Below are positions 47,603-50,712 of a stretch of 50,712 nt of DNA, piece after piece. The first letter of the stretch is position 1, and every line of letters starts with the position of its first letter. Below the pieces are notes generated by a model that made no database searches, was not told the DNA's origin, and worked only from the letters and a program-made list of their open reading frames with translations. The stretch covers positions 104,282 through 154,993 of the forward strand of contig CBFHKU010000006.1 in the NCBI GenBank assembly GCA_965656495.1, read 5' to 3'. The position numbers and the translations under genes were made by a program. The DNA is from Coraliomargaritaceae bacterium. Its GTDB lineage: Bacteria > Verrucomicrobiota > Verrucomicrobiia > Opitutales > Coraliomargaritaceae.

Positions 47603-48334
47603 TTATTGCTTTCTTCTGAATACGACTCGCGCTAAGGCAATCCCACCGCAAAGAAGCACGTAAATTGAGGGTTCGGGCACATTCGTAGCCGTTATCACGT
47701 CAGATATGTTCTCAATGCTGCTGTAATCCGAGTACTGGATACTTAATGAATTCGTATTAAAGTAATCATTGTCCGCATAATAATCAGAACCTGTGCTTCC
47801 ATTGGAAAAGTCAATCGTCGTCGCCAAAGATACGGTTTGTAAAACAAAATTCTCTTCTGGAAGCAGATTGAACTCCAATGCCAAACTGAGCGTCTCGCTG
47901 TGCGTGGACAGGTAGATGACGCTGTGCGTGGTGTTCGCATTTGAGTAAGAACTTATTTCAGACCCGTTTATTTTCACATCAATCAAGCCAGCATTGCCTC
48001 CATCGGTGAGATCGATCACGGGATTGACGGCCATACCACTTTTGAAACTGCTCAAACGAAAGGAAAGCCCCTTGGCATGGTTTAACTGAATGCCGCCGAA
48101 ATCATAAACGAACTCCAAGGATGCGGGGTTGCCTTGTCCGTAGCCATTCAGATTAAAACTGATGCCCTCTGACGGCTGGTTGTATTCAATCTTCTTACCG
48201 TAAGAATCATAATCCTCTTCAAGAGAAAACAAGTCCGGATTTATAGTGAGTACATTAGACACGGTTAAAGCTTCCAGAGAAAGACTTGCAAGGAGCAGCA
48301 GGCCAGCGAGTAGATTTAGATATTTATTTTTCAT
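47603..48334 (-). CDS. PEP-CTERM sorting-domain surface protein
   Basis: Signal peptide; C-terminal VPEPS plus hydrophobic helix plus RRKQ; lower GC than the core genes. Confidence 0.9.
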   Translation of the reverse strand: MKNKYLNLLAGLLLLASLSLEALTVSNVLTINPDLFSLEEDYDSYGKKIEYNQPSEGISFNLNGYGQGNPASLEFVYDFGGIQLNHAKGLSFRLSSFKSGMAVNPVIDLTDGGNAGLIDVKINGSEISSYSNANTTHSVIYLSTHSETLSLALEFNLLPEENFVLQTVSLATTIDFSNGSTGSDYYADNDYFNTNSLSIQYSDYSSIENISDVITATNVPEPSIYVLLCGGIALARVVFRRKQ

Positions 48335-48992: not shown

Positions 48993-49082
<90 letters not shown>

Positions 49083-49106
49083 TTTTAAAGAAAACATAAA
49101 CCACTG

Positions 49107-49140
49107 AAAAAGAGAAACTTATAAAAGGTTTCTCTTTTTT
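49107..49140 (+). terminator. Bidirectional-type terminator after tRNA-Ser
   Basis: aaaaagagaaac...gtttctctttttt inverted repeat. Confidence 0.75.
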
Positions 49141-49179
49141 GTTTTCAACATCCTATCCCTTGTATTATCCTTTTGGATC

Positions 49180-50454
49180 ATGAGGGAGTTGAAGAAACAC
49201 ACCATCTCCACCGTTGTTAACAAGAACGGGAAAACGTCCTTTCGTATCTACCTGGGTCTTTTCGACGGAAAAAGACGTTACAAACAGTTCATCGACTTCA
49301 AAAATGCAGAATCGTTTTGTTCCAAACTTAACCGAGATCTCGAACTGAAGAAAATCGGATATGACAAACAGTTCGGAAAAATGTTGGATCAGAAGAATGA
49401 GATTCTCTTCTGTCTCGAAAAGATCGAAGACCTTGGTGTCTCATTGACCGAGGTAGTTCAATTTTACGAGAAATTTGGTGAATGTTCAAAGGGGGATATC
49501 TCGATCGAGGATTCGATCAAGTTATTCAGGAAAGAGAAGGAGAAGACTGGAAAGAGTAAGATTTACTTAGATAAATCCATACACAGTTACCTCTCCCCAT
49601 TTTCAACCCATGTTGGTCGTGAAACTTTGGTGTCTGGAATCAATGAAAAGATGATCGAGGACTACGTTTACAAGACTAGGAAAAATGTTTCCCCCAGAAC
49701 AAAGGTTAATCTGATCAATCAACTATCGATCCTCTTCAATTTTTTGATCAAGAAGGGTCACCTGAAATTCAATCCGACACAAAATATTGAGAGACCAAAA
49801 GTTCTGAAAAAGAAACCGACCATCATTAAAGTCGGTGATCTTCGTAAACTATTGGATCGTGGTCTGAAAGATGGGAAATTCGAAGAAGTGACAATCTTAG
49901 TCCTCCAGTGTTTCTGTGGTGTTCGATCTTATGAATCTGGTCGAATGGTGTGGGGAGATATTGATTGGAATCGGAAAGTAGTTCAGGTAAGGTCTGAGGT
50001 ATCAAAGATGTCGAGTCATCGAATCTGTAAGATTCCTCCCAATTGTTTTGAATTCCTACGAATCGTGAGGGAAAATCTCTTTATTCGAGTCAAAGACAAG
50101 GATCGGAGGATCATTAAGAATTTCGAACACCGTATGAGGAAGTTTCGAGGAGGTTTAGGAGTCGATCTTCCAACTAATATTCTCCGACATAGTTTCGGAT
50201 CCTATCACTTCTCTCGATGGGGAGATTCAAACAAGACCAGGAATCAGATGGGACATCACGAAGGAGAATTCACTTTCCTCAATCATTATCGGGACCTAGT
50301 TCACAAGGACATGTCAGTAAAGTATTTTGACATCTATCCCTTCAATACCACCGAGAAAACATTCCGGTATGATCCTGAGAAACACATCGTGACTGGTCCT
50401 CGTGATCGAGTTACCCAAACTGGGCCAGAGCTTTCGTTAGTCTGGATGGGTTAA
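49180..50454 (+). CDS. Tyrosine recombinase/integrase of a tRNA-Ser-integrated element (last 16 aa read from the inserted IS end)
   Basis: GVRSYE (R), NILRHSFGSYH, QMGH and NHYR (Y) motifs; NP....RPK linker; immediately downstream of the tRNA. Confidence 0.93.
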   Translation: MRELKKHTISTVVNKNGKTSFRIYLGLFDGKRRYKQFIDFKNAESFCSKLNRDLELKKIGYDKQFGKMLDQKNEILFCLEKIEDLGVSLTEVVQFYEKFGECSKGDISIEDSIKLFRKEKEKTGKSKIYLDKSIHSYLSPFSTHVGRETLVSGINEKMIEDYVYKTRKNVSPRTKVNLINQLSILFNFLIKKGHLKFNPTQNIERPKVLKKKPTIIKVGDLRKLLDRGLKDGKFEEVTILVLQCFCGVRSYESGRMVWGDIDWNRKVVQVRSEVSKMSSHRICKIPPNCFEFLRIVRENLFIRVKDKDRRIIKNFEHRMRKFRGGLGVDLPTNILRHSFGSYHFSRWGDSNKTRNQMGHHEGEFTFLNHYRDLVHKDMSVKYFDIYPFNTTEKTFRYDPEKHIVTGPRDRVTQTGPELSLVWMG

Positions 50455-50578
50455 TGATGTGTTCTAAGTTGTAGAGTAAGTCAATGCTGGGGCGCAGGGA
50501 GGGCGTAGCCCGACCGGAGGCCCAGCATTGGGTTGGTGGTTCTTCTTTGATCTCCTCCTGAGCAAACTCAAGAGGCGT
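50403..50578 (-). mobile_element. Right end of an IS3-family element with transposase C-terminal fragment
   Basis: Terminal TG; minus-strand frame 50578-50411 reads TPLEFAQEE...ASGRATPSLRP...RLTKALAQFG*, like an IS3-family OrfB tail whose stop lies in the IR. Confidence 0.7.
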
Positions 50579-50712
50579 TGATCGAGTTACCCAAACTGGG
50601 CCAGAGCTTTCGTTAGTCTGGATGGGTTAATGATGTGTTCTAAGTTGTAGAGTAAGTCAATGCTGGGGCGCAGGGAGGGCGTAGCCCGACCGGAGGCCCA
50701 GCATTGGGTTGG
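50579..50712 (-). mobile_element. Second identical IS right end, truncated by the window edge
   Basis: 50579-50712 is identical to 50403-50536 (134 bp, period 176). Confidence 0.7.

Follow-up and report, generated by a model that had tools for sequence, protein, structure and literature searches.

What could strip a single two-letter step almost entirely from a working stretch of bacterial DNA, and with it nearly all the alanine from the protein it encodes? The question is raised by the end of contig C6 in the 2.06-Mb genome of a marine verrucomicrobium (Opitutia; 31 contigs, rated 99.4% complete), of which we analysed 50,712 nucleotides, here called the window. Among named proteins, the nearest to one encoded in the window belong to Opitutia / Coraliomargarita-type Verrucomicrobiota (79% to Opitutia bacterium UBA7350). 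Between a tRNA-Ser gene and an insertion sequence (IS) lie 1320 nucleotides (49083-50402; 39.7% G+C) in which the dinucleotide 5'-GC-3' (GpC) occurs once, against 51.8 expected (Poisson P(<=1) = 1.7e-21). This DNA forms one arm, the left, of a decayed integrative island; it comprises a left attachment (att) site, attL, in the tRNA gene, an integrase gene and the IS. A first-pass annotation, made from the letters of the window without database searches, had claimed a near-total loss of GpC from the tRNA end to the IS. The computed odds ratio, rho(GpC), confirms this, at 0.019 in the arm and 1.15 over the entire window. The nearest GpCs on either side are at 49079, within the tRNA gene, and at 50424, within the IS, where the dinucleotide resumes.

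Other dinucleotides are plentiful in the arm (CpG 52, rho 1.00; GG 69, rho 1.18; CC 51, rho 1.11), and in 20,000 shuffles of the stretch the lowest GpC count was 27. Permuting the synonymous codons of the integrase, with protein and codon usage kept, gave a mean of 14.8 GpC and a minimum of 5 in 5000 permutations; only one is observed, so the codon junctions of the gene have been purged too. Elsewhere in the window GpC-free gaps reach 138 nucleotides at most, and eight host open reading frames (ORFs) average 10.7% alanine. A sliding-window scan, which the first-pass annotation had proposed, shows how isolated the signal is: of the 20,256 one-kb windows covering the genome, only those at this stretch and at about 1.2-4.6 kb of contig C1 have a rho(GpC) below 0.6. 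The next-lowest value is 0.66 and the median 1.15. The island has a G+C content of 35-40%, compared with 54% for the host.

The second place is the other end of the same element. The suggestion that depletion extends through the whole element was borne out when the remainder was recovered on C1, together with attR, a 26-bp repeat of the tRNA-Ser 3' end at C1:4502-4527. Contig C1 begins with IS3-like genes, followed by four reverse-strand ORFs that are nearly or wholly free of alanine (Table 1) and then by attR; the right arm contains 14 GpCs. One of the four, PDC-S18, is 96.6% identical to a copy on the metagenome locus L002. The L002 protein matches PADLOC model PDLC04945, of a candidate defence family, in full length (E = 2.1e-95 over residues 1-313 of 319).

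Six metagenome loci carry the integrase, and in two of them, L002 and L003, the island is complete. Both adjoin the same tRNA-Ser and are bracketed by direct att repeats, of 38 bp set 8.15 kb apart in L002 and of 25 bp set 11.2 kb apart in L003; in each, the GpC-poor DNA occupies exactly the att-to-att interval. They share a backbone of the integrase, a small lipoprotein, a second tyrosine recombinase of 206 residues, a 247-residue protein (p247), a 170-residue replication protein (Rep) of the ORF2/G2P, rolling-circle type, and two small ORFs. The cargo of L002 (HNH, p257 and PDC-S18) matches that of the window genome. L003 instead carries a full type I restriction-modification (R-M) system in which HsdS has 6 alanines and HsdM has 1, while HsdR has none in 979 residues, its gene containing 0 GpC in 2940 nucleotides against 131 expected. 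NCBIfam offered no name for the 238-residue HNH protein (HNH238), p257, PDC-S18, p247, the Rep or the 165-residue lipoprotein-like protein. No sequence relative of HNH238 was found in the PDB, p257 and p247 had no usable match in the ESM Atlas or only matches in unnamed clusters, and no relative of the Rep appeared in viral contigs or the phage collection.

Through HsdM the island family proved far wider. Each of the 120 top-ranked homologues of the L003 protein (83-100% identity) has only 0-6 alanines in about 570 residues; Rhodoferax, Litorivicinus and an alphaproteobacterium are among the sources named. In species-representative genomes a scan turned up 546 HsdM relatives, and the best 80 of them were retained. 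Among these 80, which span several phyla, rho(GpC) of hsdM is 0 in 12 loci and below 0.5 in 39; codon phases were tabulated for 68, the 12 left out being mostly partial matches and further Poribacteria and Bacteroidota copies. The strict copies occupy sharply bordered tracts, 6-16 kb long, that are free of GpC, and the HsdM homologues led to islands of 12-16 kb in Bacteroidota, SAR86 and other groups. Examples are L046 from a Maribacter sp. (about 15.8-15.9 kb; 4 GpC against 345 expected), L060 (about 15.7-15.9 kb; 4 against 338) and L036 (14.0 kb; 3 against 420). Within such tracts 13-19 successive ORFs are essentially without alanine, while the flanking host genes have normal alanine. The tracts adjoin tRNA-Met, tRNA-Arg or transfer-messenger RNA genes, and att repeats of 15 bp bracket L046 and of 21 bp L060, with the tract filling exactly the interval between them in both. 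HsdRMS is common to the strict islands by construction of the search. Counting L002, a PDC-S18-like gene lies within the R-M operon at 7 loci and tyrosine integrases occur at 5, while serine recombinases occur at 6; strict islands also carry G2P-type Reps and occasional HNH nucleases. Their annotated proteins include no cytosine methylase or deaminase.

HsdR gives a similar picture. The median alanine content of 108 full-length HsdR cluster representatives is 7%; two clusters, 46-48% identical to the L003 HsdR, have no alanine at all. In a tree of 70 HsdM sequences, copies of normal composition (21-37 alanines) are basal, strict copies form one derived clade, and relaxed copies, in which GpC has partly returned, are nested within it repeatedly. 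We take the GpC-free state to be old and widespread. Even the normal-composition proteins have only those 21-37 alanines per roughly 565 residues. None of 815 HsdM-relative records on sequenced plasmids reaches 60% identity (best 49%), and the three records from sequenced phages are 37-39% identical, so that neither collection yielded a vehicle for the islands.

What is purged is the two-letter step rather than alanine as such. The GpCs that remain are spread over the three codon phases (24/21/16 in 25 genes), and non-coding DNA is affected as well: intergenic GpC numbers 3 against 35 expected in L002 and 10 against 172 in 11 strict islands, with 8 against 77.5 in the spacers between divergent genes. 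General restriction avoidance was rejected for the window-island family, in which GATC (1.03-1.08 observed/expected), TCGA (1.0-1.09) and CCGG (0.88-1.18) are at expectation and only GTAC is low (0.32-0.41). The host genome under-represents GTAC (0.51), GGCC (0.60) and CTAG (0.63), of which the island shares only the avoidance of GTAC. The Bacteroidota islands avoid GATC, CTAG, CATG, ACGT and CCGG about 2-3-fold too, with their GpC at 0.02. The context of the residual GpCs was tried as a clue to the agent; AGCT and AGCA/TGCT are favoured in the window family, L088 (a further island, described below) favours AGCA/TGCT and has no AGCT, and strict islands are patternless. As the groups are inconsistent, we drew no conclusion from it.

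The GpC-free state is still being maintained, and the proteins are under purifying selection. In four comparisons of close relatives, differences touching GpC number 0, 4, 17 and 12, where random placement gives 5.5, 16.3, 78.6 and 30.8. Synonymous codon differences outnumber non-synonymous ones, by 36 to 11 in PDC-S18 and, in the integrase, by 37 to 7 when compared with L002 and by 96 to 19 when compared with L003. Alanine has been lost from conserved positions too. At 22 conserved-alanine columns of HsdR the replacements are glycine in 7, serine in 6, cysteine in 4, and isoleucine, threonine, phenylalanine, valine and glutamate in one each; at 18 such columns of strict HsdM they are serine in 9, cysteine in 4, glycine in 3, and valine and threonine in one each. 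The first-pass annotation had proposed tabulating what replaced alanine in integrase homologues, with valine and threonine indicating deamination and serine, glycine and cysteine indicating avoidance. In HsdR and HsdM the latter three fill 33 of the 40 columns and the former two only 4, which favours avoidance selection. Its view that the pressure overrides protein-level constraint likewise stands: in the HsdR of a relative, DEAH has become DEVH, FTATP has become FTGTP and QHSAGSGK has become QHTTGSGK.

In copies that have settled in chromosomes, GpC comes back at silent sites while the proteins remain poor in alanine. Relaxed HsdM copies hold 3-8 alanines and have regained silent GpC, with codon-phase counts of 3/20/28 in L008 and 3/14/14 in L072. 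At L008 the three R-M genes lie amid ordinary genes with no recombinase nearby. Alanine-poor R-M genes were seen at L008:9992-15992, L012:9995-11707 and L072:2797-4506: chromosomal type I R-M genes with 0.5-2.8% alanine and near-normal silent GpC are present in metagenome-assembled genomes of Arenicellales and Thermodesulfobacteriota, and one of Nitrospira lenta has a similarly alanine-poor hsdM (3 alanines). Such chromosomal genes may be alanine-poor fossils of former GpC-free island cargo. The opposite state is found in an apparently recent gene of L088, whose phase counts of 15/0/3 show the GpCs of alanine codons kept and the silent ones nearly gone.

These comparisons show an island lineage under strong and continuing selection, at the level of DNA, against 5'-GC-3' for as long as it is mobile, with alanine as the price. 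The purpose would be to evade enzymes that read this step; we put the probability of the explanation as a whole at roughly 0.6. GpC goes first from non-coding DNA and, within genes, from silent sites and codon junctions; alanine codons next give way to those of serine, glycine or cysteine, even in catalytic motifs. A GpC-free island could then pass unseen by GpC-reading enzymes as it moves from host to host or while it resides in phage-infected cells. The threat may be a nuclease whose target is GpC-containing DNA that carries no modification or, alternatively, the GpC-specific cytosine modifiers of aquatic phages combined with nucleases that attack modified DNA. Once a copy has settled as ordinary chromosomal genes the pressure would be lifted, and silent GpC would return while the proteins remain alanine-poor. 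A broader proposal, which we advance tentatively, is that aquatic bacteria, or their phages, widely deploy an undescribed DNA-targeting activity that reads bare GpC; that phages decorate the step (C5-MT/TET, CmoX/CmoY) whereas a large family of small rolling-circle/integrase islands, which ferry defence genes in several phyla, deletes it and remakes helicases, methylases, nucleases and recombinases without alanine; and that alanine-poor chromosomal proteins are fossils of such islands.

The aquatic habitat, and the island family itself, do harbour enzymes for which GpC alone is the target. The available portions of two reports describe them in phages. TET-associated phage C5 methyltransferases favour GpC, and for one subclade any GpC is a substrate (Burke et al. 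2021, PMC8256090). In Synechococcus phage S-B43, CmoX carboxymethylates cytosine in a GC motif with carboxy-S-adenosylmethionine supplied by CmoA, and CmoY, an asparagine-synthetase homologue, adds glycine; CmoX-type enzymes are marked by an SPPC motif and Arg350 (structure PDB 8YF3; PMC12783734). Within the island family the case is L088, a 15.3-kb GpC-poor contig from IMG/VR (99 GpC against 551 expected) that carries resolvases, the same small Rep and type I R-M, with no capsid genes among its annotated ORFs. A co-oriented array at L088:1082-11348 encodes a CmoA-like protein, a 323-residue protein, a CmoY-CmoX fusion, hsdM, hsdS, hsdR and a T5orf172 protein. The fusion (662 residues) joins an N-terminal Asn_synthase domain to a C5 methyltransferase with DGSPPC that is predicted to be of the CmoX type. 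It matches PDB 8YF3 at E = 2.6e-77, the next match being at 1e-15, and an arginine is conserved at the R350 position, counted along the 8YF3 alignment. The gene neighbouring it matches CmoA at 2.9e-29 but falls short of the NCBIfam cut-off, and the same fusion occurs at 92-97% identity on four more viral-collection contigs (L108-L111). To judge from these sequence matches, the array is apparently a GpC-type cytosine hypermodification cassette coupled to type I R-M. It lies on a non-phage island, whereas the published CmoX systems are phage-borne.

Could the islands instead be protecting themselves from a GpC-directed weapon or modifier of their own, such as HNH, PDC-S18 or a CmoX-type enzyme, whose target they must lack? 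Their cargo does include nucleases and defence genes: HNH238 of L002 weakly resembles the PADLOC models for HNH and for type II and type IV restriction, PDC-S18 fits its model at about 2e-95, and in L088 a CmoX-type modifier sits in a GpC-poor island, co-oriented with type I R-M. However, beyond generic recombinases and the Rep, no gene is common to all GpC-free islands. The cargo varies from type I R-M (L003, Bacteroidota) to HNH with PDC-S18 (window island) and CmoX (L088 group only), the window copy is still purged without an HNH domain, and type I restriction enzymes do not recognise a dinucleotide. Equal purging of islands that lack the HNH, PDC-S18 and L088 enzymes would also speak against self-protection, and is in part already seen; we consider this reading unlikely. 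Mutational decay, by C5 methylation of GpC and deamination or by a GpC-context deaminase acting on the single strand of a rolling-circle intermediate, seems to us very unlikely. The rolling-circle Rep of intact relatives implies a single-stranded stage, and phages do have GpC-specific methyltransferases, as the available text on them describes. Polymorphic GpC often pairs with GT or AC, yet the share of transitions equals that among all other differences. Methylation with deamination, one of the causes offered in the first-pass annotation, is not supported by the composition: rho(GT) and rho(AC) are 0.79-0.99 in three island sets, showing no excess of the expected products, while GA/TC and GG/CC are raised. 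Together with the scarcity of valine and threonine at conserved-alanine columns, this evidence points to selection at the DNA level rather than to deamination. Moreover, invariant catalytic alanines have been lost from intact ORFs under purifying selection, which mutation pressure alone rarely achieves, and no stop-codon debris was seen.

Selection might also act on RNA or translation, if transcripts had to evade a ribonuclease that cuts at GC (for example an abortive-infection toxin) or if proteins had to be made without tRNA-Ala. Defence genes may need expression during toxin activity, and since GpC is self-complementary, its symmetric depletion is compatible with selection on RNA. But the non-coding DNA, including the divergent-gene spacers and the region adjacent to the att site, is purged equally. 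The purge is no less complete in silent phases and at codon junctions than in alanine codons, so avoidance of alanine or tRNA-Ala alone would be insufficient. We think such a cause highly improbable. Just as little can be said for passive import, in which the composition was inherited from a donor virus or cell with a GpC-free genome and the present hosts exert no pressure. The island's G+C content, so different from the host's, fits a foreign origin; however, strict copies in different phyla are only about 60-65% identical and all still have a rho of 0, recent substitutions avoid making GpC, newly gained genes undergo purging within islands, and copies that are no longer mobile regain the step. 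Taken together, these observations mean that the GpC-free state decays unless it is maintained.

Several points weigh against continuing selection for evasion as we have framed it. In the host, no GpC-specific nuclease or modifier was identified, although no systematic nuclease search was made; its two C5 methyltransferases have GPPC and FPC motifs, not the SPPC of CmoX, and one is paired with an MvaI/BcnI-type nuclease. None of five strict-island hosts has a close CmoX relative; in two of the five the only matches are generic C5 methyltransferases, 29-35% identical. L088 is itself GpC-poor despite encoding a GpC modifier, which misfits a simple choice between modifying and eliminating the step. 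Some GpCs are tolerated and polymorphic, 3-16 per strict island and those 14 in the right arm of the window island, so a single site is not lethal. As GpC is its own reverse complement, strand asymmetry cannot tell selection on DNA from selection on RNA; the argument for DNA depends on the non-coding spacers, some of whose sequence may be transcribed. The HsdM tree may be distorted by composition bias and by the chosen root. Finally, because the contigs break in the IS, we infer the joining of C6 to C1 from the att repeats and synteny.

The copy in this genome is a remnant. For six backbone genes of L002 (the lipoprotein, the small recombinase, p247, the Rep, p195 and p106) tblastn finds no counterpart in the genome, which makes the window copy a deletion derivative; judged by the absence of the Rep, the small recombinase and the four other backbone genes, it is probably immobile. 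The IS interrupts the integrase three codons short of its native stop and adds a foreign tail of 17 residues to the ORF. The same IS end also closes contigs C15, C17, C18, C19 and C28, and its recurrence at these five other ends accounts for the assembly break. Within the IS end a 134-bp stretch is present twice, 176 bp apart, at the extreme end of the contig; the repeat may be genuine, or the assembly of a multi-copy IS may have created it. The window island itself encodes no C5 methyltransferase, no deaminase and no nuclease recognisable as GpC-specific. Recoding of a stop codon as alanine was ruled out, the ORFs being open and full-length under table 11, and neither the window island nor the elements of L002, L003, L036, L046, L059, L060 and L088 contain tRNA genes.

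Table 1. Features of the decayed island, with positions in the window unless contig C1 is named.
Feature	Position	Strand	Basis or content
tRNA-Ser (anticodon GGA), integration target	48993..49082	+	ARAGORN
attL, 26-bp core TTCGAATCCCTCTCTCTCCGCCATTT	49060..49085	.	longest common substring, tRNA region against C1
GpC-free non-coding leader, tRNA end to integrase start	49083..49179	+	no GpC between 49079 and 49306
Tyrosine integrase, native part, residues 1-407 of 410	49180..50400	+	ORF; PF00589
Sole GpC of the arm, in the GCA codon of Ala43	49306..49307	+	
End of multi-copy IS with normal GpC; ends the contig	50401..50712	.	junction by collinearity with L002
HNH nuclease, truncated, 119 residues (first ~126 residues of the 238-residue protein)	C1	reverse	Ala 1/119
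p257-type gene, 245 residues, no assigned function	C1 (L001:1969-2706)	reverse	Ala 3/245
Lipoprotein-like gene, 165 residues	C1	reverse	Ala 0/165
PDC-S18 candidate defence gene, 320 residues	C1	reverse	Ala 0/320

The middle gene between HNH and PDC-S18 (L001:1969-2706 in this genome; L002:16048-16821) is the least purged of the element, with 10-11 GpCs and 3-4 alanines, and the two copies do not have the same GpCs. It may be the newest acquisition of the element. A second remnant of the att core, 21 bp long, lies at C1:4653-4673 in GpC-rich DNA, 126 bp past attR, and is probably the scar of an older integration at the same tRNA. Directly past attR, C1:4980-7444 encodes a restriction nuclease of the MvaI/BcnI family (match at 1.1e-57) together with a C5 cytosine methyltransferase (match at 4.5e-64), both normal in GpC and alanine, which form a separate R-M module at this tRNA hotspot.

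With the foreign tail, the integrase ORF (49180-50454) encodes 424 residues with a single alanine (A43). It scores 29.2 bits against PF00589 (cut-off 27.1) and, aligned with five homologues, shows the catalytic boxes R249, R336-H337 and a downstream HY. It is 98% identical to the L002 copy, with which it is collinear up to about position 50400, and 95% identical to that of L003. Other homologues are scarce: we found one 95% cluster, one 81% protein with 8 alanines and a remainder at 26-30% with normal alanine; no relatives were found in species-representative genomes or in viral contigs. Among the motifs that the first-pass annotation had read as sites of substituted alanine, FCGVR holds up, replacing the FAGLR of three of four distant homologues, and KTRNQMGH is weak, at one of four. 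FGSYH is not such a site: RHSFG(S/T)Y is invariant in all six aligned integrases, the alanine-rich ones included. Away from the island, the window encodes on the reverse strand (47603-48334) a secreted protein of 243 residues that ends in VPEPS, a hydrophobic stretch and RRKQ, which we take to be a PEP-CTERM-like sorting signal.

How do these islands relate to systems already described? We know of no cognate enzyme for the avoidance of GpC in islands. Depletion of CpG, in vertebrate genomes and under M.SssI-type methylation, is a decay that leaves an excess of deamination products. It resembles the present case in that a self-complementary dinucleotide is depleted on both strands, and differs in that the islands have GT and AC at or below expectation and have exchanged alanine for serine, glycine or cysteine rather than valine or threonine. 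Avoidance of short palindromes, the restriction sites, is described in phages, plasmids and other mobile DNA (PMC6286503 and PMC10359461, in the portions available). There too a short word is depleted in mobile DNA and not in the host, presumably through DNA-cutting enzymes, and the window island and its host both avoid GTAC; but the word purged here has only two bases, its removal is near total (rho 0.00-0.1 over 8-16 kb), and it strips one amino acid from 13-19 successive proteins. The phage C5 methyltransferase/TET and CmoA/CmoX/CmoY systems, as far as the accessible text describes them, share with the islands the unit that is recognised, the GpC step (PMC8256090, PMC12783734). The phages keep and decorate GpC whereas the islands delete it, and the window island is without such an enzyme.

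As elements, the islands are most like tycheposons and PICI-like islands (PICI, phage-inducible chromosomal island), which are likewise small, marine and cargo-bearing, with tyrosine recombinases, tRNA 3' ends and partial tRNA repeats (bioRxiv 10.1101/2020.12.28.424599). Compared by description in the accessible text, the window-island family differs in its replication gene, a small Rep of the ORF2/G2P type, and in that same text of the preprint the words dinucleotide, GpC, alanine, restriction and rolling occur 0 times. In our literature search, with subscription journals outside its coverage, no paper on mobile elements devoid of GpC or of alanine came to light.

The islands show how far selection against a DNA word of two letters can go: it can delete one of the twenty amino acids from whole sets of working enzymes. 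They provide natural helicases, methyltransferases, nucleases and recombinases built from 19 amino acids, which could serve as templates for alanine-free protein engineering. A rho(GpC) near 0 would be a signature by which mobile defence islands can be found, and alanine-poor proteins encoded in DNA of normal composition would mark their settled descendants. Implied by all this is an unrecognised GpC-directed force among aquatic microbes, which would also give a reason for the GpC modifications of marine phages.

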